36,109 bases of DNA, taken from NCBI GenBank assembly GCA_023150835.1, contig JAKLKB010000116.1, forward strand, positions 1-36,109. The letters are read 5' to 3'. Origin of the DNA: Myxococcota bacterium (GTDB taxonomy: Bacteria > Myxococcota_C > UBA6777). Position 1 is the first letter of the stretch; each line of letters starts with the position of its first letter. Made by a program: the position numbers and the translations under genes. Shown here in pieces: positions 1 through 36,109 of the stretch. The notes beneath the pieces are model-generated. The model was not told the origin of the DNA and made no database searches. It was given only the letters and a program-made list of their open reading frames with translations.

Positions 1-204
1 CGCCCTCCCCCGTGAACAGGGGAGGGAGCGAAAGTCGGAAGCAGCGGGGATTTTGTTTTTTCATGACGCACGCTGTTTGCACGAGACGCAGACGCTGCCC
101 GTTCCAACTTCCCCCCGTTCACGGGGGGATTGAGGGGGGGGAGAAAAAAAAGGCGATCAAGACCGACTCTACGAGGTTTCCACCTTAACAAGGCGCGTAT
201 GGGG
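1..204. repeat. Repeat family R1 copy 1 (left end cut by window edge)
   Basis: Near-identical to about 12470-12673 and 22439-22614. Contains the CCCTCCCCCGTGAACAGGGGAGGG and CCCCCCGTTCACGGGGGG hairpins and the right end CTTAACAAGGCGCGTATGGGG. Confidence 0.9.
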
Positions 205-315
205 TTTCACCCCACACCCCACAAGGGAGCGAAGCCCCCTTGACCCCGTGAGGGGCGAAGACAGCATAGGTTTTTCAAGCAAACGGCTCTGTCGCTTGAA
301 GTGTCGCGAACACGG
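200..315 (-). repeat. Repeat family R3 copy 1 (~115 bp four-stem element)
   Basis: Reverse complement reads CCGTGTTCGC..TTCAAGC..GCTTGAA..CACGGGGTCAAGGGGGC-TTC-GCTCCCTTG..TGGGGTGAAACCCCA; homologous to the copies at 5085, 12317 and 30940. Confidence 0.85.
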
Positions 316-365
316 CTTCTTTGGGCCGCTGCGTCAGTCCTCTGTGTCAAACGCGATGTTGTGGC

Positions 366-3081: not shown

Positions 3082-3468
3082 GTGACACGAAATCCGCAGG
3101 GTGTGTGATCGTCAAACGTAGGGGCAGCCCCCTGTGGCTGCCCAAAAACAGGGCCATTACACCGAAGCAGCCCCATGTGGCTGCCCAAAAACAGGGCCAT
3201 TACACCGGAGCAGCCCCCTGTGGCTGCCCAAAAACAGGGCCATTACACCGGAGCAGCCCCCTGTGGCTGCCCAAAAACAGGGCCATTACATCGGAGCAGC
3301 CCTCTGTGGCTGCCCAAAAACAGGGCCATTACACCGGAGCAGCCCCCTGTGGCTGCCCAAAAACAGGGCAATTACAGCGCAGCAGCCCCCTGTGGCTGCC
3401 CAAAAACAGGGCAATTACAGCGGAGCGCACCAACATCGCGATCACATACGACCCGAATATCGTACGAC
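3082..3468 (+). repeat. Repeat family R2 copy (TIR-bounded GTAG-REP element) with internal tandem expansion
   Basis: Left end GTGACACGAAATCCG, GTAGGGGCAGCCCCCTGTGGCTGCCC at 3118, right end CGAATATCGTACGAC. Confidence 0.8.
3124..3424. repeat. 7 x 43-bp tandem repeat of a REP-like hairpin
   Basis: Unit GCAGCCCCCTGTGGCTGCCCAAAAACAGGGCCATTACACCGGA, seven near-identical copies with no unique spacers. Confidence 0.95.
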
Positions 3469-3562
3469 ACAGTTCATCAAAAACAAACCACTTCGCCCTC
3501 GGAGCGCTTGTAGTGTACAAAAGCAAAGCACAAAGGCAAACCCCAAGGAGAGTAAACGCATC

Positions 3563-5035
3563 ATGGGCAAACGAAAGCCACGCAACGAAGAAGTGTTTGA
3601 AGTCGAAGTCACCGCGCTTGGCCGAAAAGGGATCGGCATCGCGATCGCTCCCGATGGCGATCCCATCGAGATACGTGGTGTCCCACCCGATACAGTCGTC
3701 GAAGTCCGCGCCCGTCGCAAACGCAAGGGCTTGTGGGAGGCCGTTCCGTTGCGCATCGTTCGTTATCCCGCATCCGCCGAAACACCGCGCTGTGCGGTGT
3801 TTGAGATGTGTGGGGGCTGCACACTCCAAGGACTCCAGCTACACGCGCAGCGCACCGCCAAACAACGAACCGCCATCAACGATATCGCCCGTGCCATGAA
3901 CCTTTCCAGCGAAGAGCTTGCACAACAAGTCACGATCCACCCAACACGCGGCCCTGAACAAGCCTACGCTTACCGAAACAAAGTCGAACTCACTTTCGGC
4001 GCACAGCGCTTCCTCGACAAGACGGATCTTGATGCAGGCTTGCCGTTTGATGGCCGTTACCTTGGCTTCCATGCCCCCGGTCGATTCGACAAGATCGTCG
4101 ATGCGGCCCGCTGCGAACTGATCAGCGAACCCGCCAACCAACTGCTCGCCATCGTTCGCCAACAAGCCCTAACACCCGATGCTCCGCCGACTTGGGATCC
4201 ACGTACTCACACGGGCTTCTGGCGTCATCTGCTCTTGCGCGAAGGATTCGCCAGCGGAGAACATCTGATCGGACTCTACACGGCTCCCGCCCAAACCCCC
4301 GAACAAGAAGCGGCAGTATCGCGGCTTGCAGATGCCCTTCAACACGCCTCGCTCGCTTTCAACCATCGCCTCGCAGGGATCGTCTGGTTTGAAAATGACT
4401 CGGTGGGTGATGCCGCTCAAGGCTCGATCCGTCAGGTATGGGGCCGACATTGGCTCCACGAACGCCTCGGATCCATCGGCTTCCAACTCTCGATCCAGTC
4501 CTTTTTTCAAACTTCCACCCTCGGCGCAAAACTGCTTTACGATACCCTTGGCGACGCGATCACGTCCTCCCATCGGCGCTTGTACGATCTTTATTGCGGC
4601 ATCGGCTCGATCGGACTTTATCTCCACCAACGTTTCGATCAGATCATCGGCATCGAAGAGATCCCCCAAGCCGTCGAAGATGCCCGCCAAAATGCCCAAC
4701 GCAACGGCATCCACCACACCACCTACCACGCCGCCCGCGTCGAAGAAGCCCTCGATCTCCTACCCACCACACAACACGATCACACCTTGATCGTCGACCC
4801 GCCCCGGGGTGGTTTGCATCTCAGCGTCGCAAATGCCCTTGCACGCGCCCCGGGTGACGAATTGCTTTACGTCGCCTGTCACCCCGCATCCTTGGGCAGA
4901 GACGCTCTCCCTCTCGCTCGCGGCGGATGGCGCCTCGCTCATCTGTGGTTTGTCGACCTCTTCCCCCAAACCTATCACATCGAAGCCATCGCACGCTTTG
5001 AACGCCAACCTAAAAAAAATCCGCCCCCCCTATAA
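3563..5035 (+). CDS. rlmD: 23S rRNA m5U1939 methyltransferase (RlmD/TrmA family)
   Basis: TRAM-like N-terminus, C-x5-CGGC Fe-S motif, YRNK, SFFQ, DLYCGIG, VDPPR, YVAC, DLFPQTYHIE. ATG 3563 follows AAGGAG. Confidence 0.9.
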   Translation: MGKRKPRNEEVFEVEVTALGRKGIGIAIAPDGDPIEIRGVPPDTVVEVRARRKRKGLWEAVPLRIVRYPASAETPRCAVFEMCGGCTLQGLQLHAQRTAKQRTAINDIARAMNLSSEELAQQVTIHPTRGPEQAYAYRNKVELTFGAQRFLDKTDLDAGLPFDGRYLGFHAPGRFDKIVDAARCELISEPANQLLAIVRQQALTPDAPPTWDPRTHTGFWRHLLLREGFASGEHLIGLYTAPAQTPEQEAAVSRLADALQHASLAFNHRLAGIVWFENDSVGDAAQGSIRQVWGRHWLHERLGSIGFQLSIQSFFQTSTLGAKLLYDTLGDAITSSHRRLYDLYCGIGSIGLYLHQRFDQIIGIEEIPQAVEDARQNAQRNGIHHTTYHAARVEEALDLLPTTQHDHTLIVDPPRGGLHLSVANALARAPGDELLYVACHPASLGRDALPLARGGWRLAHLWFVDLFPQTYHIEAIARFERQPKKNPPPL

Positions 5036-5084
5036 CCCATCCAACCGATCCGACCCCGACACGAAACACGCCACCCACCAAACC

Positions 5085-5198
5085 CCGTGTTCGCACTCCT
5101 TCAAACGGCACCGCTGTTTGTTTGGATATCTCTGTTCACCCCGTCTATACGGGGTCAAGGGAGCCGCGCTCCCTTGCGGGGCGTGGGGTGGAACCCCA
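5085..5198 (+). repeat. Repeat family R3 copy 2
   Basis: CCGTGTTCGC..TTCAAAC..GTTTGGA..TACGGGGTCAAGGGAGC-CGC-GCTCCCTTG..TGGGGTGGAACCCCA, lying between convergent genes. Confidence 0.85.
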
Positions 5199-5268
5199 CA
5201 AAGACCATCCAACCCACAAAGACCATCCACCCCGCACCCCTCACAAGAAACACGCTGCGGCTCGCTGT

Positions 5269-6685: not shown

Positions 6686-7693
6686 CTATTCTTTGTACGG
6701 ACCCAAAAACTTGCCTCCGTTGAAATGGATTAGATGGTCTGGAGAATCGGCGATCCAAACTTCGGTTTCCCATGCGATATCTGGTGCGAACTTCCGAAAC
6801 GTTGCTCGGTCAAGAAATGCGGTGATGTACACGATCTCGGCTGTACAGTCTGTGGTTAGGCGTTTGAGTTCTTCAAGCCTCACGGGTGTGATCGGGCCTG
6901 AACTATGGACTGCTTCGATCAAAAATAGCCAGTTCTTCGACGAACTGTACGCAAGAACATCGGGGAGTTCATCGTGTGCGATTTCAAAGAAGGACAACGC
7001 CGCCAATTGACGCTCGTCGCACAGAAGCAGTTTCTTTGCCGTGTCGCCAACATAGAGCACCTCGCACTCAAAACCGTAGCGAGGAAGAAACTCCTCAATG
7101 ATAGCCTTCTGCAACTCGTTGTGTTTGCCGGGTGAAAACTCCAATTTTTGCCCGCTTGGAAGCGATACGCTCACCCTTTTTATCTCTCTTTGAGAAGAGA
7201 GCCTATCGCGCAACGTGCCTGTCTGGGCAAGAAGTTCGTCAACATCTTTTTCCCACCCCTCGTTGCCGTACGAGCGGACGACGTCGATGTATCGAGGACT
7301 CAAAGCATAACCTCGCGTCGGGTTGTTTGTCGCCGCATTTGGATCGTTTGCACTACGTTCGACGATCCCTGCGACTGTAGCCAACTTCAAATCTTTACGG
7401 CGGATATCGTCGTACGATCCACTCGATATAGATTCGCCAAAGTGGCTGTTGATGTAGTCGATCATCTGCCTTGTTTGGGGAGTCCATCCGTCTCCACTTT
7501 GCTTGGCTTTTGGCCAGTCTATCGAGCACTTCACATCAAGAACCGCCAAAAACGCCATCGCCATCCGCTCAAGACGGCGCTCAGTTAAACCGTCGAACGG
7601 AATGCCTAAGCTGTTGAGGATATGAAGAGCCTCGTTGATGACTTTCTTCGTCGAGTCCGATTTTTTGGTCGTAGGGATAAAATCAGGTGTCAA
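6686..7693 (-). CDS. BsuBI/PstI-family type II restriction endonuclease
   Basis: FSPGKHNELQKAIIEEF, LYVGDT, PD..IEAVHSSGP and C-terminal IAWETEVW..PDHLIHFNGGKFLGPY. TTG start after GAGGAGG, 3 nt after the MTase stop. Confidence 0.92.
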   Translation of the reverse strand: MTPDFIPTTKKSDSTKKVINEALHILNSLGIPFDGLTERRLERMAMAFLAVLDVKCSIDWPKAKQSGDGWTPQTRQMIDYINSHFGESISSGSYDDIRRKDLKLATVAGIVERSANDPNAATNNPTRGYALSPRYIDVVRSYGNEGWEKDVDELLAQTGTLRDRLSSQREIKRVSVSLPSGQKLEFSPGKHNELQKAIIEEFLPRYGFECEVLYVGDTAKKLLLCDERQLAALSFFEIAHDELPDVLAYSSSKNWLFLIEAVHSSGPITPVRLEELKRLTTDCTAEIVYITAFLDRATFRKFAPDIAWETEVWIADSPDHLIHFNGGKFLGPYKE

Positions 7694-7696
7694 GCA

Positions 7697-8728
7697 TTAC
7701 CCTCCTCGCGATTCCATTGCGAAAAGTTCTGGTTGTACAGGTAAGTTCCGATGCATAATTTCGGAGTTTGAAAAACGATGATCTGACTTCAAGTATTCGA
7801 CAACGGAACAGGCGATTGCGTAAGCGAACAAAGGAGGCACTGCGTTGCCGACCTGGTAGTATTGGCTTGTTTCTGTTCCAGAGAACTCAAACCAGTCAGG
7901 AAAACTCTGAAGGCGCGCAGCTTCACGAACGGTGATTCTTCTCCTCCTGCCGTCTGGGAGGCGCAGCCGATGCATATCTCCGGTTGCACCCGCCAAGTTT
8001 CTACAGGTAAGGGTTCGTGCCGGGCGGTCGAGGTGAAGGTCGCGCGGGGTGACACATTTGGATGCCTTCTCATAATTGGCGACGTACTCGTCCATTCTTG
8101 CGGTAAGAAACTTGGCATCATTCGGAATTGAGACAGCCAATTCACCGAGGGCTTCACCAGCCGTCACCCGAGCAGAAGTTTCCTTCGGGAACTGAAAATC
8201 CCCACGATGCCCAACAACAACGAGTCGCTCTCGATTTTGAGGGACACCAAATCCAACAGCGTTAAGCAACCGATATTCAACCACATAATTCAATTCTTTA
8301 AGTCGGGCTAGGATCTCTTCAAAATAACGCTTGTTTCGATACAAAAGACCACGCACATTCTCAAACATCCAAATATCAGGATCGACTTTCTTGATAGCTT
8401 CGACGAAAATGGGAAAACCGTCCCTCGGGTCTTGGAGGCCCAGTTGCTTTCCTCCGACGCTGAATGGCTGACAGGGGGGGCCACCGATCACGATTTGAGC
8501 AGGAGAATACTCTTCTCCAAGATCGAGCCGCTTGCGTTTGCAGGGGCCGTTCAGGTTGAGTGAGTAGGTGTTCGCGTAATCGGATTCCATTTCGTATCCA
8601 CTCGTACGAATGCCACATGCCTCAAAGCCGAGAGCCAGTCCTCCACATCCAGCAAAAAGGTCGATCGCGTCGTACTGAAACGACGCTGGTCGCGTCAACT
8701 TCTCTTTTAATTCGTCCAAATAAGTCAT
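7697..8728 (-). CDS. DNA cytosine-C5 methyltransferase
   Basis: Motifs DLFAGCGG (I), GGPPCQPFS (IV), ENV (VI), QNRER (VIII), REAARLQSFPD (IX) and GNAVPP (X). Confidence 0.95.
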   Translation of the reverse strand: MTYLDELKEKLTRPASFQYDAIDLFAGCGGLALGFEACGIRTSGYEMESDYANTYSLNLNGPCKRKRLDLGEEYSPAQIVIGGPPCQPFSVGGKQLGLQDPRDGFPIFVEAIKKVDPDIWMFENVRGLLYRNKRYFEEILARLKELNYVVEYRLLNAVGFGVPQNRERLVVVGHRGDFQFPKETSARVTAGEALGELAVSIPNDAKFLTARMDEYVANYEKASKCVTPRDLHLDRPARTLTCRNLAGATGDMHRLRLPDGRRRRITVREAARLQSFPDWFEFSGTETSQYYQVGNAVPPLFAYAIACSVVEYLKSDHRFSNSEIMHRNLPVQPELFAMESRGG

Positions 8729-8799
8729 GAGTTTCACGCCCGATGTATTTCTCTGAACACGGCGCAACCGTGACCAAGAACCCTGTCGCAAAAGCAACG

Positions 8800-11577
8800 C
8801 TAACGATCTTGGTGGCGTGCGCCCCATTGAAAACCAAACGAAAGGCTCGGATCAAAACGAAAAGCCACAGGGCCGTGGATGAACTTCTTTTCGGGGTTGT
8901 TGTTGAGGGGCCGAAAGATGCCACGAAAGACGATCATGCGAAATCCCAGCGCAAGAAAAAGGCCACTGGTGATCCCGATGCGAAGCTCATTATTCCAGCG
9001 AAAGTCGTGCAAGTTGAGACCGTCTTTGCCCTGACCGATCACAAACGTCATGTTGTACTCGGCTTTGGACTTGAGCGTCAACGGAACCTGCCCAAGCTTT
9101 ACGAATGTCCACCCCTCCACCTCATAATCGACCGAAAACCCCAAAGAGCTATCGAGGTTGACACGCGCAGGGATATTCACAGGATCTTTCAAGGTCAAGC
9201 CGGGCGCCCATTCTTTGCGCCAGACCCCACCGAGCCGCATGGTGATCTTGGAGTCGTATTGAAAGCTAAGCCCCAACTTGGCGCGAGTCTCGAAGTGATG
9301 GAATATCTCGGTGCTTCCGCTGTTTTCAAAGAACTTTTGCGGCGAAAGATCGGGACGTTGGGTGGTGGTGGTTTCCGTCTCAAGCAGCGCCTCGATAAAA
9401 GGCGAGGCCACTTCCCACTTGGTATCTTTGAACACATTCTTCAAAAAATGCCAGTGGTACTGGGTTTTCAACGTCACTTGGTCGGTGCTTTCCTGATAGA
9501 TGCGCGGATCGATCGGACCTGCGGGCGGGCCTTTGCTCCACTGAATGCTCGTATCCAAGGCATAATTGATATGGAGTTCCGTCACCCACAGATGTTGAGA
9601 AGTCTCCATCTTGAGGGAGCTTTGAAGCTGGCCTTGGGCATTGAACTTCTCGTAGAATCCGCCATTAAACTCTTCGTGTTGGGTGTAGACCACATTGATA
9701 TTGATCGGCTCGATGCTGAGCGCCGTAAAGCCCGCTTGGAAAGAGAAGTTGAACGTCCACGTCGGCTTGGCCTCGATATCTTGGAGTTTGCCGTGATGGG
9801 GGATCACTTGTTCTCCCGCCAGATCGGTCTTTTTGGGGTCGCGTCGAAATCCCTTGAATTGATGAAAACGAAAATGATCGACCAAGGCTTGCCGCAACAA
9901 CAGCGGATAACCGCCCGCCCGCGTCAACACCGACATCCGCAAGATCGCAGACTTCGCCAGTTTGGGGTGTTCGCCCATTGCGATGCTTTGGGTGGTGACA
10001 AGATGATAATGCAGCTTTTCCTCGATCTTTCGACCATTCACATTGCTTGAGGACACGCCCACAAAAGAAAATGGCTTGGACGTAGGCCCCGCAGATTCGG
10101 AGGTTTCGATCAGGGCCGTCAGGTCTTTTCCTGTCAGGGTGAGGATCGCAAGCGGTTCTTCCCGAGGGATGGCCCGAAACAGATCATCCATGCTGATATG
10201 CTGCTTGATCGGAAAGACGCCCCCTCCAAATGCCGACGCTGGCAAAAACGCCACTTCTGCCTGCCCTTGCAGCCGCAGCCAGTCCAACACATACTGCCGA
10301 AACTGCTCTTCACTCATGCCATCATCGCCTTGTATCCGCCCGTTTCCAAGCGGTGCGCCCCAGTTTTGGCAGTAGGTTTTTTCCCACCGCAATAATTCTG
10401 CTCGCAGACGTGCATGAGTGTGCTTTTCTTCGGCGGCGAAAAAACGATGATCCACGCGGTCGATCTGGACTTTTCCGTCTTTGCGGCGCAACGACCAACG
10501 CAACTGACCAAGCTGTGCGCCGTGTGGACGCCCGCCCACGATCCACGTCACCGCGCCATTTTCGGCGTAATGCGTGATCATCCCTGTTGCCTTGCCTTTG
10601 GACATTCGACTGGCCACGATCACGTCGATCCCTTCGACTTCGGAGGCCAACTTGCGTGCGTGACTGCCGTTGGAGTCGCCGACTTCGAGATCCGAAAGCA
10701 CCACCACGATATCCGCTTTGTGCTTTTCGCGCAGTTCTTTGACGCGCTCTTTGGCGAAATCATCGGGCGCAACCAACGTGATCTTCCGAGCGCTCGGTTC
10801 TTGCGCCCCCTCAGGCATGGACTCGGGACTTAGATGAAACACTCCGATGCGCCAAGGCCCACGCTGGATCACAAAGGTCGAAGGAGCGACTTGGGTCGGT
10901 TGCTCTTTCAACGCATCGAGCGGATGCTCCGACGGGATCTTCTTGACGTTGGCCAGCGAGAAACGCACACCCGCCGCTCGTGCGGCCTCCAACATCAGCT
11001 TGATCTGACGCAACTCCGTTCCAAAGTCCGCCGCCCCGATCCCCAACACGTCGTACTCCATGAGCGCGAGGTATTTGGCCAAAAAAGCGGCCCCCGTTTG
11101 TGCCCCAAGATGGAGGATATAACGCGCCGAACGATCAGGCGCGAAGCTGTCCCCTGTCGAAAACAGCAACGGCTTGAGCAAGCCCTGTTTCGCGTGTTCT
11201 TGGCGTATCGACTGGATCAATCCAAGGAGGTTCGCCATATCGGGCGGTGTTTCTTCTTGGGTTTCATCCTTTTTCTTCGGGCAAAAGAACGACCGCCAAC
11301 GCCCCCCCAGATCGGTGTGATAAAGCAGCGTCAGCTCGTCGTGTCTCTGCGATGCAACCAACGGCAGCACAGGGGTTTGCGTCGATATCGAGGGTGGGGA
11401 GATGGGAGAGGTCTTCGTTCGAGTAGAGGCATCGGCCTTGGCGGGATTCTGTTTTGGGGTGGCTGTGTCCCCAACGTTGGGGGTTGATTTTCCCGTGTGT
11501 GGGGGAGTTTGAGCAAAAGAAAAACGGTGCAAGCAACCAAAAAGTCCGAGCAATAGGGCAACAAACAAACGTGCCAT
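8800..11577 (-). CDS. Exported 5'-nucleotidase-like (degenerate metallophosphoesterase + C-domain) protein with probable C-terminal outer-membrane beta-barrel
   Basis: Signal peptide; UshA-like segments (LLYHTD, TGD, ANV, RIGV, KADIVVVLS, GIDVIV, DLFRAIP, LTGKDL). C-terminal ~310 aa of alternating aromatic beta-strands ending SFGFQW. Start 11577 inferred. Confidence 0.7.
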   Translation of the reverse strand: MARLFVALLLGLFGCLHRFSFAQTPPHTGKSTPNVGDTATPKQNPAKADASTRTKTSPISPPSISTQTPVLPLVASQRHDELTLLYHTDLGGRWRSFFCPKKKDETQEETPPDMANLLGLIQSIRQEHAKQGLLKPLLFSTGDSFAPDRSARYILHLGAQTGAAFLAKYLALMEYDVLGIGAADFGTELRQIKLMLEAARAAGVRFSLANVKKIPSEHPLDALKEQPTQVAPSTFVIQRGPWRIGVFHLSPESMPEGAQEPSARKITLVAPDDFAKERVKELREKHKADIVVVLSDLEVGDSNGSHARKLASEVEGIDVIVASRMSKGKATGMITHYAENGAVTWIVGGRPHGAQLGQLRWSLRRKDGKVQIDRVDHRFFAAEEKHTHARLRAELLRWEKTYCQNWGAPLGNGRIQGDDGMSEEQFRQYVLDWLRLQGQAEVAFLPASAFGGGVFPIKQHISMDDLFRAIPREEPLAILTLTGKDLTALIETSESAGPTSKPFSFVGVSSSNVNGRKIEEKLHYHLVTTQSIAMGEHPKLAKSAILRMSVLTRAGGYPLLLRQALVDHFRFHQFKGFRRDPKKTDLAGEQVIPHHGKLQDIEAKPTWTFNFSFQAGFTALSIEPININVVYTQHEEFNGGFYEKFNAQGQLQSSLKMETSQHLWVTELHINYALDTSIQWSKGPPAGPIDPRIYQESTDQVTLKTQYHWHFLKNVFKDTKWEVASPFIEALLETETTTTQRPDLSPQKFFENSGSTEIFHHFETRAKLGLSFQYDSKITMRLGGVWRKEWAPGLTLKDPVNIPARVNLDSSLGFSVDYEVEGWTFVKLGQVPLTLKSKAEYNMTFVIGQGKDGLNLHDFRWNNELRIGITSGLFLALGFRMIVFRGIFRPLNNNPEKKFIHGPVAFRFDPSLSFGFQWGARHQDR

Positions 11578-12113: not shown

Positions 12114-12234
12114 CGAATACGATATCCGAGTGATGTGTACACAAAGGAGAGTACGTAGACGCCCGACTCTTGGGCAGACCCCTGTGTCTGCCACTACATC
12201 CTTACGATCACACAACGGGCGGATCTCGTGTCAC
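12114..12234 (-). repeat. Repeat family R2 copy
   Basis: Reverse complement GTGACACGAGATCCG..GTAGTGGCAGACACAGGGGTCTGCCC..GGGCGTCTAC..CGGATATCGTATTCG; aligns end-to-end with 21469-21588. Confidence 0.85.
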
Positions 12235-12316
12235 ATGCGCTGTTTTTCGTTTGGAAAAACGCACAAACCGAACACACAAAGAGCCGCCTGTTGACAACAA
12301 AAGCCGTGTTCAAAAG

Positions 12317-12431
12317 CCGTGTTCGCAAAACTTCAAGCGGCTGTGCTGTTTGCTTGAAACACCATCGATCACCCCGCCAACACGGGGTCAAGGGGGCAAA
12401 GCTCCCTTGTGGGGCGTGGGGCGCTGCCCCA
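12317..12431 (+). repeat. Repeat family R3 copy 3
   Basis: CCGTGTT..TTCAAGC..GCTTGAA..AACACGG GGTCAAGGGGGC-AAA-GCTCCCTTG..TGGGGCGCTGCCCCA; abuts R1. Confidence 0.85.
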
Positions 12432-12673
12432 TAGGCGTTAGGTTAAGCGCTTGTTGGCCCCCCCACCCCAGCCCTCCCCCGTGAACAGGGGAGGGAGCGA
12501 AAGTCGGAAGCAGCGGGGATGTTGTTTTTTCATGACGCACGCTGTATGCACGAGATGCAGACGCTGCCCGTTCCAACTTCCCCCCGTTGGCCGGGGGGAT
12601 TGAGGGGGGGAGAAAAAAAAGGCGATCAAGACCGACTCTACGAGGTTTCCACCTTAACAAGGCGCGTATGGGG
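12427..12673. repeat. Repeat family R1 copy 2 (complete)
   Basis: Ends CCCCATAGGCG.. and ..GGCGCGTATGGGG; core nearly identical to 1-204. Confidence 0.9.
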
Positions 12674-12716
12674 CAAAGCCCCACGTATCCCAAACCGAAT
12701 TGTGTCCCTTCACGCT

Positions 12717-17788: not shown

Positions 17789-17871
17789 ACGACTCTACGC
17801 AACATATTGCAAAAAAACCCGCGTTCGCGCCACTCCACGCGACAGAGCCGTTGATTTGAGAGACCTCTGCT

Positions 17872-18069
17872 CATTTCCGTACATTCCGTACATTCCGTAC
17901 ATTCCGTACATTCCGTACATTCCGTACATTCCGTACATTCCGTACATTCCGTACATTCCGTACATTCCGTACATTCCGTACTTTCCGTACTTTCCGTACT
18001 TTTCGTACTTTTCGTACATTCCGTACTTTTCGTACTTTTCGTACATTCCGTGCTTTCCGTACATTCCGT
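17872..18069. repeat. 9-bp VNTR (ACATTCCGT)n, about 22 units
   Basis: 11 perfect units at 17881-17979, then variants ACTTTCCGT and ACTTTTCGT; lies between convergent genes. Confidence 0.97.
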
Positions 18070-18125
18070 GGACTCTTCTTTTCGATATCCTCTGCGTGAT
18101 GCCCGCGTTTTGTACCCATGTAAGA

Positions 18126-18171
18126 GGGGCCATCTGTGGCTTCACCTAACGCCTAGGGTGGCAAAGCCCCA
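18126..18171 (-). repeat. Relic of an R1 left end
   Basis: GGGGCCA..GCTTCACCTAACGCCTAGG resembles the reverse complement of 12427-12463 and is followed by GGCAAAGCCCCA as at about 12672. Confidence 0.55.
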
Positions 18172-21468: not shown

Positions 21469-21588
21469 GTGATACGAAATCCGCCCGTTGTGTGCGTAAA
21501 GAGGTCGGTGCAGCACCCTGTGGCTGCCCTAGAATCGGGTGCCTACGTACTTCCCTTTGCTGTGTGCATCACTCGGATATCGTATGAC
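21469..21588 (+). repeat. Repeat family R2 copy (120 bp, simplest form)
   Basis: TIRs GTGATACGAAATCCG / CGGATATCGTATGAC around a degenerate GCAGC..GGCTGCCC hairpin and GCCTAC. Confidence 0.85.
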
Positions 21589-22352: not shown

Positions 22353-22704
22353 GTGATACGAGATCCGCCCATCGTATGCGCCAATATGTAGGGGCAGCCC
22401 CATAGGCGCCTTGTGAAGCGGAGGAAAGCCCCCCACCCCGCCCTCCCCCGTGAACAGGGGAGGGAGCGAAAGTCGGAAGCATCGGGGATTTTGTTTTTTC
22501 ATGACGCACGCTGTATGCACCAAATGCAGACGCTGCCCGTTCCAAGGGGGGAGAAAAAAAAGGCGATCAAGACCGACTCTACGAGGTTTCCACCTTAACA
22601 AGGCGCGTATGGGGGCAGCCCCCTGTGGCACGGCTGCCCAAAAACAGGGCGTCTACAGCGGATCGCGCCTACCCTTCGCGCACATCTCTCGGATATCGCG
22701 TGGC
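22353..22704 (+). repeat. Repeat family R2 copy interrupted by an R1 insertion
   Basis: GTGATACGAGATCCG..GTAGGGGCAGCCCC [R1] GGGGCAGCCCCCTGTGG..GGCTGCCCAAAAACAGGGCGTCTACA..CGGATATCGCGTGGC. Confidence 0.85.
22398..22614. repeat. Repeat family R1 copy 3 (second hairpin deleted)
   Basis: 21-bp imperfect TIRs CCCCATAGGCGCCTTGTGAAG / CTTAACAAGGCGCGTATGGGG. Confidence 0.9.
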
Positions 22705-23553: not shown

Positions 23554-23679
23554 CTCATACAAAATCCGCTCATCGTGTACACGAAAAATGTAGGGGCAGC
23601 CCCCTGTGGCTGCCCTATTACAGGGCGTCTACAGCAAATCGCACCGACCCCACAAAAACCATCCAACGACATCGGTGTC
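23554..23679 (+). repeat. Repeat family R2 copy (degenerate ends)
   Basis: CTCATACAAAATCCG..GTAGGGGCAGCCCCCTGTGGCTGCCC..CAGGGCGTCTACA; lies between convergent genes. Confidence 0.75.
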
Positions 23680-30892: not shown

Positions 30893-30939
30893 CTTGTTTC
30901 TTTGCTCTGTATCAGGACTTGCGCATTTGGTTTGTTTTG

Positions 30940-31053
30940 TGGGGCGAGGTACCACACCCCGCAAGGGAGCCTCGCTCCCTTGGTCCCGTGTTGGCGGGTG
31001 ATCTTTGTTTTTTCAAACAAGCAACTCTGCCGCTTGAACTTCCGCGAACACGG
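30940..31053 (-). repeat. Repeat family R3 copy 4
   Basis: Reverse complement CCGTGTTCGC..TTCAAGC..GTTTGAA..AACACGGGACCAAGGGAGC-GAG-GCTCCCTTG..CCCCA. Confidence 0.85.
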
Positions 31054-31305
31054 GGGTTTTTGACGAGCCGTTCCTGCACTCAACGAACCAGACGACCCGA
31101 CCAAACCGCCCGTTGACGCTTCATCCGAGGCCCAAGGCTTATGCCCCGTTGACATCGAAGATGCAGCGTGACGAATTCAACCGACCATACAACAAGCCCT
31201 TGGTGGCGAAAAGAAGCCGCTCTTGCTTCCACCCTTTTTTCTCCTTCTCCGCCCTCCAAGAAACTATCCACGCAACGTCCGATACCACCGAAAGAAACAT
31301 CGCCG

Positions 31306-32602: not shown

Positions 32603-32929
32603 ATGGCGAAGAAACATCGCCCAAAGATTGAAAATCCTCTTGGAAGAGCAAGAGCTTGCTGGACAAATGGTGACGTTGTCTTTATGCCTCATGCTCTCCT
32701 GCGACAAGAAGAGAGGCAGATTACCGATCCAGAGGTCGGGCAAATTATTTTGGGAGGCTTTCACGAAAAATCAAAAGACGAATACAAAGAAAATCTAAAA
32801 GAGTGGAATTATGCCCTGCGTGGAAGAACGATAGATGGGCGAGATCTTCGGATTGCTGTTGCTTTTGAGCTTTCTGAGCTTGAAGAAACTTTATTGATCG
32901 TGACTGCAATTGAAATCAAAGCGACATGA
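32603..32929 (+). CDS. DUF4258-like putative type II toxin (RelE/MqsR-like)
   Basis: HA..R..ER-x-I, WNYALRG-x-T-x-DGR-x-LRIAVAF, LIVTAI; ATGA-coupled to the HTH gene. Confidence 0.75.
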   Translation: MAKKHRPKIENPLGRARACWTNGDVVFMPHALLRQEERQITDPEVGQIILGGFHEKSKDEYKENLKEWNYALRGRTIDGRDLRIAVAFELSELEETLLIVTAIEIKAT

Positions 32930-33453
32930 TGAGGTCAAAAGAAATGGAAGAAAAAGTATGGCTCGATACACGCTTCGGATTCCCTGTTGAGCTTCGCGGT
33001 GTCAAATCCCGCATCATCCGAGGGGAAGAAGTCCCGATGATCAATGCAAATCATCTCCGCTTTGCTGTCATCGCAGGGTTGATCTTGAAGCCCGGACGCT
33101 TGACGGGCAACGAAGTCAGATTCCTTCGACTGTGGATGGAGTTGACTCTTTCTCAGCTTGGCTCGGAGCTGGGCGTGACCCATCCTGCCGTACTCAAATG
33201 GGAAGCCAAAGAAAACAATCCTTCAAGTATGGGAAAAGCTGTGGAGATCCAGCTACGTCTGCTTGTTCTCTCTAAGTTTGCTCAAACGATGGAAGAACAA
33301 AAAAGCACAGAAGCGCCACAAACCGTACAGCAGCTCGAAGAAAAGATACCCTTCGATTCTGCCGGTCCTTTGGCGTTCGGACATATGTTGAAAACCGTCG
33401 CCACGGCTGTCAAAATGCAGCCTTCCACCCCCGTTCTTCAGATCTCCGCTTGA
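32926..33453 (+). CDS. MqsA/HigA-like Xre HTH antitoxin
   Basis: LTGNEVRFLR..LT..LG..LGVTHPAVLKWE helix-turn-helix. Confidence 0.8.
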   Translation: MMRSKEMEEKVWLDTRFGFPVELRGVKSRIIRGEEVPMINANHLRFAVIAGLILKPGRLTGNEVRFLRLWMELTLSQLGSELGVTHPAVLKWEAKENNPSSMGKAVEIQLRLLVLSKFAQTMEEQKSTEAPQTVQQLEEKIPFDSAGPLAFGHMLKTVATAVKMQPSTPVLQISA

Positions 33454-35936: not shown

Positions 35937-36042
35937 GTCATACGACATCCGAGCAAGAGGGTGTCTAACGCAGCGATATCTGAACGCGATATCTCCGCGT
36001 AATGTGTGATCGTAAAAATGTAGGGGCAGCCCCCTGTGGCAC
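35937..36042 (+). repeat. Repeat family R2 partial copy
   Basis: GTCATACGACATCCG TIR-like 15-mer, then TGTGTGATCGTAAAAATGTAGGGGCAGCCCCCTGTGGC. Confidence 0.7.
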
Positions 36043-36109
36043 TTGGACCAACTAATGCCAAATCACGAAAAAGGCTGGACAATTGAAACGAATCTTGTTC
36101 GTTGAAACA

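Follow-up and report, generated by a model that had tools for sequence, protein, structure and literature searches.

A short repeat nested in other repeats of a Myxococcota genome is very probably a transposase-less relative of IS186 and IS231 that duplicates 11 bp at GGG-N5-CCC sites

Insertion sequences (ISs) of the IS231 subgroup are described as having CAT ends, a YREK motif and direct repeats of 10-12 bp (PMC2266710). For IS231A, an 11-bp target, GGGNNNNNCCC, of the form GGG-N5-CCC is tabulated (PMC2577343, Table 1, citing Hallet 1994); for IS186, the target is given as GGGG(N6/N7)CCCC (PMC5009759), and IS421, with 99% identity to IS186, is placed in the IS231 subgroup of the IS4 family (PMC6352166). 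MIC231 cassettes, which have no transposase, are reported to move in trans (PMC6199540). ISRm22, an IS4-family element of Sinorhizobium meliloti, is reported to insert at the palindrome axis of REPs, and approximately one-third of its copies have mismatched direct repeats, which were put down to recombination (PMC1525189). Here, we compare with these systems a short repeat, R1, that lies inside two other repeats, R2 and R3.

The window analysed here is the whole stretch of 36,109 nucleotides, a contig (C56) of an assembly (G000) of 7.56 Mb in 239 contigs with 55% GC and a completeness of 93%; DNA nearly identical to the window is present in activated-sludge and wastewater metagenomes. At 22353..22704, flanked by ordinary genes for a pyridoxamine-phosphate oxidase and a glutathione S-transferase, a copy of R1 is nested in a copy of R2. 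The locus has the following features (TIR, terminal inverted repeat):

22354-22356, + strand: R2 duplication (T-N-A), left copy, TGA
22357..22390, + strand: 5' part of R2; TIR TACGAGATCCG, running into the GTAG tag of its REP (R2 HMM match 22356-22403)
22391..22400, + strand: R1 target-site duplication, left copy, GGGGCAGCCC, 10 nt
22401..22611, + strand: R1 MITE, 211 bp, CAT...ATG, internally deleted compared with the ~240-bp type
22401..22418, + strand: R1 left TIR, CATAGGCGCCTTGTGAAG, of hybrid type (between the usual left and right TIRs)
22441..22464, + strand: R1 internal hairpin, CCCTCCCC-8-nt loop-GGGGAGGG
22594..22611, - strand: R1 right TIR, CATACGCGCCTTGTTAAG (read inward)
22612..22622, + strand: target-site duplication, right copy, GGGGCAGCCCC (GGG-N5-CCC)
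22612..22700, + strand: 3' part of R2; rest of the GTAG REP, partial inverted REP and degenerate right TIR CGGATATCGCG

On inspection of the sequence, the palindrome GGGGCAGCCCC is present at both 22391-22401 and 22612-22622, and the palindromes previously placed at 12417-12431, 12670-12683 and 200-214 are there as well. In each 'hairpin', the innermost C and G are R1's own bases (CAT...ATG). Typical R1 has a second, inverted hairpin, which this copy has lost through a deletion near 22545 (loose ends 22545/22546), and the GTAG REP in the 3' part of R2 bears a unique 5-nt insertion. By eye, the hairpin at 22441..22464 is similar to the palindrome that precedes the DUF559 gene of the genome. In the sister genome G001 (91% identical here), the orthologous site holds R2 together with an R1-family element whose interior differs, and the left copy of the duplication has the full 11 nt; in the related genome G002, the site is without R2 and without R1. 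Because the G001 site is filled and G002 lacks both repeats, comparison with these two genomes gave no strain-level empty allele of the insertion at 22391. R1 was probably already at 22401 before G000 and G001 diverged, and its interior was remodelled later; the alternative is that R1 inserted independently into a shared target in the two genomes. None of the contigs of four runs bridges the R1 insertion at 22353-22704. Joints that skip 22400-22632 were considered as an empty site and rejected: they have sides of 22-28 nt and inserted letters and are probably other repeat copies.

Genome-wide, BLAST gave 216 merged R1 loci, with both ends recognised in 54, only the left end in 75, only the right end in 65 and neither in 22; most of the one-ended loci stop at a contig end, and R1, R2 and R3 loci account for many of the contig breaks in the assembly. 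R1 begins with CAT and ends with ATG, and its terminal repeats are 18 bp long. A motif search found 323 R1-type ends, 302 of which start with CAT; of 74 paired ends, 68 enclose 138-275 bp. GGG-N5-CCC abuts 280 of the 323 ends, mostly in R3 or R2, while a perfect GGGG-N5-CCCC is present at 235 of the 322 end-motif matches with enough flank; the 43 misses among the 323 include spurious motif matches and the left end at 22401, which is one C short. Thus, the coincidence of R1 ends with GGGG-Nx-CCCC hairpins, which the original prediction had noted in the window, extends over the genome and is far beyond chance.

Duplications were counted with CAT...ATG as the element in 73 end pairs less than 1 kb apart, of which one was dropped for its short flank. 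Among the remaining 72 two-ended copies, 48 have an exact 11-bp duplication, one (the 22401 copy) an exact 10-bp duplication and 23, including the copy at 12430, no exact duplication. Shuffling of the flanks gave a mean of 4.9 exact duplications, with a maximum of 15 in 10,000 trials. Because the exact 11-bp repeats are far above this level, the 'hairpin on both sides' of R1 is an 11-bp target-site duplication. The boundaries of R1 are fixed because an 891-bp variant on C117 has a non-palindromic 11-mer, ACCCTCACCCC, on both sides and the copy on C225 has GGGCAGCGCAC duplicated. Two other delimitations, a 13-bp duplication with ATA...TAT ends and a 5-bp duplication with CCCC...GGGG ends, fail on the R2 sites or on C117 and C225. 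The loop had been thought to differ between the two sides of R1; normally, it is duplicated exactly, the 12430 copy being among the 23 exceptions. Mismatched direct repeats are elsewhere attributed to recombination between copies or to adjacent deletion (PMC1525189, PMC11708052). For the non-matching R1 flanks, we infer recombination or conversion; a misassembled, collapsed repeat could equally account for them.

Several irregular R1 structures were also observed. In 4 of the 72 copies, the flanking 11-mers are reverse complements rather than direct repeats. TIR types are often swapped (right-type at 23 left-interior ends and left-type at 14 right-interior ends) and hybrids occur, which suggests template switching or conversion along the long stem formed by TIR plus duplication. 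Four tandem R1-R1 junctions (C35:15513, C89:136, C159:7137 and C231:33604) share a single 11-bp spacer, suggesting that an R1 end rebuilds a target-like site; the R1 junction, TATG-GGG-N5-CCC, resembles the TGTG-GGG-N5-CCC of R3. If this is true, each R1 insertion makes two target-like junctions, and stacks grow on themselves.

The ends of R1 match those of a described IS, IS186/IS421 of the IS4 family, at 13-14 of 18 nt; such a match, with a target-site duplication, is what the original prediction had named as refuting the hairpin-targeted mobile system that it proposed. Compared with IS186A of Escherichia coli K-12, which begins CATAAGCGCTAACTTAAG, the left TIR is identical at 14/18 and the right TIR at 13/18 positions. 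R1 follows the subgroup end consensus CAT-------AA--TAA, with TAA or GAA at positions 15-17; of the AA at positions 11-12, which IS231A and MIC231 have, the left TIR retains only half and the right TIR nothing, R1 having AG or TT there.

As had been expected for a non-autonomous element with its enzyme encoded elsewhere, pieces of a transposase gene with R1-type ends were found elsewhere in the genome. On C235, a 333-bp element has R1-type ends on both sides of transposase amino acids 1-66; on C126, amino acids 1-44 lie next to an R1-type left end; and on C214, amino acids 76-111 and 405-438 with the stop codon are followed by an R1 right TIR, identical at 18/18 positions to that at 22594..22611, in an R3 palindrome. 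Further pieces lie on C174 and C120. With the pieces as queries, intact proteins of 438-442 amino acids were found in metagenomes, and the pieces are 88-94% identical to one of these, P0005 (438 amino acids). P0005 is a PF01609 protein with D110/D165/E301 and the Y-2-R-3-E-6-K signature YRCRWQIELGIKRWK; the D-D spacing of 55 is just below the stated 60-110 and the same as in IS186. It is encoded by a single ORF and has the DDE residues and the Y(2)R(3)E(6)K signature of the subgroup, and it is linked to R1 ends via the genome fragments. Its best NCBIfam match is the IS4 model NF033592 (E 5e-23; 82 bits, below the cut-off of 115), on which the IS186 transposase scores 133 bits. Two short fragments from G000 gave a weak IS4 match (E 0.027) and spurious Pfam matches, and a tblastn search of plasmids with a 117-amino-acid fragment gave no match.

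The G000 assembly contains no intact cognate transposase, and scans for loci with the intact cognate gene gave only distant relatives (best-segment identity 22-53%). Because no contig shows an intact gene with both ends, the putative full-length cognate IS of R1 is reconstructed from the fragments. Multicopy ISs are often missing from such assemblies. Among 102 distant-relative loci, 56 have a candidate end pair and 12 of these 56 an exact duplication of at least 10 bp, nine being of 11 bp and 7 of the 12 lying in GGG-N4-7-CCC; one IS with a distant transposase (L091) has ends identical at 18/18 positions to the R1 left TIR. In G001, two transposase 3' ends at contig breaks are each followed by a TIR of the R1 type, both in R3-type palindromes with different loops. 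By eye and uncontrolled, many distant IS186-like elements of other phyla lie in GTAG-REP-like or DUF559-type palindromes; examples are L042, L053, L066, L072, L079, L083 and L112-L117. Two more apparently intact PF01609 transposases of the genome (L222 on G000:C187 and L223 on G000:C103) have TIRs of their own, and their ends are unrelated to those of R1-R3. In the window itself, the 28 ORFs scanned (of 126 listed) gave no Pfam transposase match, and an Rfam scan gave 0 matches.

R1 is short and TIR-bounded, has no transposase and occurs in dispersed copies with a target duplication, as MITEs do; its direct repeat lies within the 10-12 bp, and its target at 280/323 ends within the GGG-N5-CCC or GGGG-N6,7-CCCC, of the IS231/IS186 subgroup. 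We are therefore confident that R1 is a MITE of this subgroup, which would be moved in trans by a DDE enzyme and not by an HUH enzyme. It is apparently an undescribed MITE family of a known IS subgroup; the literature searched, mostly open-access and outside ISfinder, yielded no description of an IS186-derived MITE. IS186/IS421 of E. coli shares with R1 the CATA-GCG...TTAAG ends and a GC-rich palindromic target, and with the R1 parent a homologous DDE/YREK transposase, although P0005 is only 23% identical to the E. coli IS186 transposase (343 amino acids, E 3e-12). In contrast to IS186, R1 has no gene, is ~240 bp long, has an N5 spacer and an 11-bp duplication (IS186A itself has a 10-bp duplication in GGGG-N6-CCCC) and occupies ~200 loci instead of a few. 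IS231A of the Bacillus cereus group is described with an 11-bp duplication like that of R1 (PMC2577343), and IS231 with CAT ends and TAA at positions 15-17 (PMC2266710, Table 1). While MIC231 carries passenger genes and is 0.7-3 kb long, R1 consists of non-coding hairpins or minisatellites. ISRm22 resembles R1 as an IS4-family element in REP palindromes with some mismatched direct repeats; however, it is described as autonomous, of subgroup IS4Sa and with 6-bp repeats (PMC1525189).

In the mechanism that we propose, the cognate 438-amino-acid DDE transposase would bind the two 18-bp CAT-ended TIRs in trans, excise R1 and insert it into the palindromic duplex GGG-N5-CCC by a staggered cut of 11 bp, the best target having a further G and C outside this core. 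Repair would duplicate the 11 bp, and because of this the same 'mini-hairpin' would stand on both sides of R1. The cut-and-paste chemistry would be that of IS231A, and the mobilisation in trans that of MIC231, both by analogy. R2 and R3, which are older, abundant and non-coding, would have spread by their own, different enzymes.

The hosts of R1 were assigned with HMMs built from natural empty copies of R2 and R3, as BLAST host classes mislabelled outer ends as 'other'. The R2 HMM gave 1390 matches (925 covering more than 80 model positions) and the R3 HMM 770 (684 covering more than 80). Among the 73 two-ended R1 copies, 45 adjoin R3, 16 R2 and one both; eight of the other 11 have remnants of R2 or R3 ends (by eye), and those on C94, C117 and C179 have none. 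R1 is thus, as predicted, site-specific for R2 and R3 palindromes and forms a nested mosaic with them. Its accumulation in R3 and R2 is explained by these repeats supplying nearly all intergenic copies of the target. Of the non-repeat intergenic GGG-N5-CCC sites, 3 are filled (hand count) and 226 empty (p 6e-4, with crude gene calls); because R1 avoids these sites, more than the six core bases matter. Empty intergenic GGGG-N5-CCCC sites, with both the flanking G and C, number only 11 outside a repeat-like context, and compared with non-repeat sites with the same flanks, the occupancy of R3 (p 1.0) and R2 (p 0.33) is similar in a test of low power. The nesting is explained by this sequence rule, and recognition of a hairpin, on which the original prediction rested, is not needed.

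We find it rather improbable that the same DDE transposase and MITE use a target that needs, besides its sequence, an extruded hairpin or cruciform or a strongly bent palindrome. Complementary bases at positions 4 and 8 (C-G, T-A or G-C) in 254 of 276 occupied GGG-N5-CCC ends would agree with such a target; however, this complementarity is a property of R3 and R2 themselves, and unpaired R3 ends are filled as often as paired ones (2/12 versus 56/320, the former a small sample). Similarly, of two overlapping GGG-N5-CCC registers in R2, the symmetric one is used 30 to 1, which fits either a flank preference or hairpin symmetry; an outer TGT preference at R1 targets predicts the same register. 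By eye, several distant IS186-like elements also lie in REP-like stems, but R1 copies are found in non-hairpin sites (C94 and C117), and IS186 insertions are reported in coding GGGG-N6-CCCC sites (PMC5009759). A broader reading, which we put forward as unlikely if slightly less so, is that DDE transposases of the IS186 clade recognise REP-type palindromes in part by their structure (hairpin or cruciform) and, in many phyla, land in other selfish repeats (GTAG REPs, DUF559-type palindromes and R3-type ends) as harmless sites, with R1 stacks growing by themselves and the stem of TIR plus duplication promoting conversion. Structure recognition by an IS4 DDE transposase, if shown, would raise the importance of these findings, whose significance is otherwise modest. 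The ~280 ends are an unusually large natural insertion set for the target rule of IS231 and IS186, including flank preferences.

The original prediction had R1 mobilised by HUH (RAYT) transposases. We consider movement of R1 as single-stranded DNA by an HUH (RAYT) or DUF559-type hairpin-recognising enzyme highly improbable. The genome does encode a 252-amino-acid RAYT-like ORF with R2-like GTAG REPs, and one DUF559 gene lies behind a palindrome resembling the internal hairpin of R1; among the literature matches listed, no paper treats DUF559-linked palindromes. However, no R1 end occurs in the RAYT or DUF559 flanks shown, and R1 shares its ends with IS4 transposase fragments. Moreover, R1 has an 11-bp duplication and CAT-ended TIRs, so that its junctions are of the DDE type and no HUH step is needed, and it is not built like a REPIN, with GTAG-tagged terminal REP hairpins and neither DDE-type TIRs nor a long duplication. 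Long target duplications and CAT-ended TIRs are features of DDE elements, and HUH elements are not known to make such a long target duplication. Equally little credence can be given to integration by tyrosine or serine site-specific recombination between a circle with GGGG-N5-CCCC and a chromosomal site, the 'duplication' being a shared core: both R1 junctions rebuild the same palindrome and the four tandem junctions share one 11-mer, but a carried core is excluded because relatedness among 47 exact-duplication copies is independent of the loop (p 0.35) and of the host repeat (p 0.44), loops differ between copies that show no mismatch at any aligned position and R1 lies in R3 in both orientations (20 versus 14), and in addition the 11-mer duplicated at C117 is non-palindromic and the R1 ends belong to a DDE element.

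R1 as a DDE-mobilised MITE has R2 as its target and not as its mobiliser. R1, R2 and R3 had been taken for one system; they are independent elements, because their ends and the lengths of their duplications (11, 3 and 5-6 bp, respectively) differ. BIME-like mosaics can arise from selfish repeats that are independent of one another.

R2, ~113 bp long, has TACG...CGTA ends and 11-bp TIRs, which enclose a GTAG REP together with a partial inverted one. Its duplication is an exact T-N-A in 158/373 copies, and a 3-bp duplication is present in 119/272. As a whole, R2 has the TIRs and the target duplication of a TIR MITE, while its core has the tag, the GC stem-loop and the cognate REPs beside a RAYT-like gene of a GTAG REP. 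The core thereby resembles GTAG REPs, REPINs and BIMEs with RAYT, for which GTAG-tagged GC stem-loops with a partial inverted partner, tandem arrays and a RAYT gene with similar REPs are described (PMC3733652). Unlike in REPINs, the REP lies between 11-bp TIRs flanked by a T-N-A duplication, and because of this the spreading unit of R2 looks like a TIR MITE. The RAYT-like ORF, on C113, has HUH and tyrosine motifs and scores 58 bits on NF047646, below the cut-off of 80. Similar GTAG REPs lie inside and downstream of it, and because of these the proposed RAYT link, misplaced for R1, fits the REP core of R2. Between the HUH and tyrosine motifs, the ORF (L180:1453-2208, G000:C113) has an in-frame REP-derived expansion of IGQAQ units. 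No autonomous partner with R2 ends was found in G000 or in six PF01609 loci of the genus.

An element of ~170 bp bounded by TAGGACTTACGCA-type TIRs has R3 as its conserved core; 11 of 209 empty R3 cores keep both of these TIRs. R3-type TIR pairs have a 5-6-bp duplication in 43/61 cases (7/17 in the 160-179-bp class), and no IS701/ISAba11-group transposase with R3 ends was matched in G000 or the genus. A 114-117-bp family shares the R3 TIRs and the 5-6-bp duplication (39/61 TIR pairs), and R2 lies inside R3-type TIRs in 42/373 cases.

The window contains the following other copies:

1..201, + strand: R1 MITE truncated at the contig start; its right end, ATG, lies at 199-201
202-212, + strand: target duplication copy GGGTTTCACCC for R1 1..201
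199..321, - strand: inverted R3 core (HMM), target of R1 1-201
3087-3464, 12117-12230, 21472-21585 and 35994-36040: further R2 copies, the first a tandem REP array
5080..5203, + strand: empty R3, unfilled target
12312..12432, + strand: R3 core; its terminal GGGG-N5-CCCC palindrome served as target
12430..12670, + strand: R1 MITE, 241 bp, with unlike flanking 11-mers
17878..18157, - strand: R1-family variant; left end at 18157, then a 9-bp tandem array
23557..23635, + strand: R2 without R1, the empty-site model for the 22391 insertion
30935..31059, - strand: empty R3, unfilled degenerate target

All five R1 ends originally reported in the window do lie at hairpins; the count was one short, since a sixth R1-type end is present at 18157 (- strand). 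The right end of R1 1..201 abuts GGGG-TTTCA-CCCC of the inverted R3. The 12430 copy is flanked by GGGCGCTGCCC at 12419-12429 and GGGCAAAGCCC at 12671-12681, giving GGGG-CGCTG-CCCC as its left and GGGG-CAAAG-CCCC as its right palindrome; it would be a hybrid of two R1 copies or a misassembly. The variant at 17878..18157 has lost its other end, where it joins the 5' half of an R3 copy (17813-17877). Its interior is a tandem array of the 9-bp unit TTCCGTACA (17875-18070), and the genome has ~20 variant ends of this kind, with array lengths that differ in many of them. In the R2 copy at 3087-3464, the REP is expanded to a 43-bp tandem array of ~7 units, which overlaps the start of a long, mechanically called ORF (3134-5035). 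At 6686-8827, a C5 cytosine methyltransferase adjoins a BsuBI/PstI-type restriction endonuclease; the usual partners of PstI-type enzymes are adenine methylases. A DUF4258 and HTH gene pair at 32603-33453 is similar to a toxin-antitoxin module. Finally, 36040-36109 belongs to a fourth family, R4, with ends CA[CT]TTG..CCAACT.AT, which also inserts in REP stems; it has 68 ends genome-wide and a 9-10-bp duplication in 2 of 9 pairs, and its ends resemble those of an IS4 element (L221) in G002.
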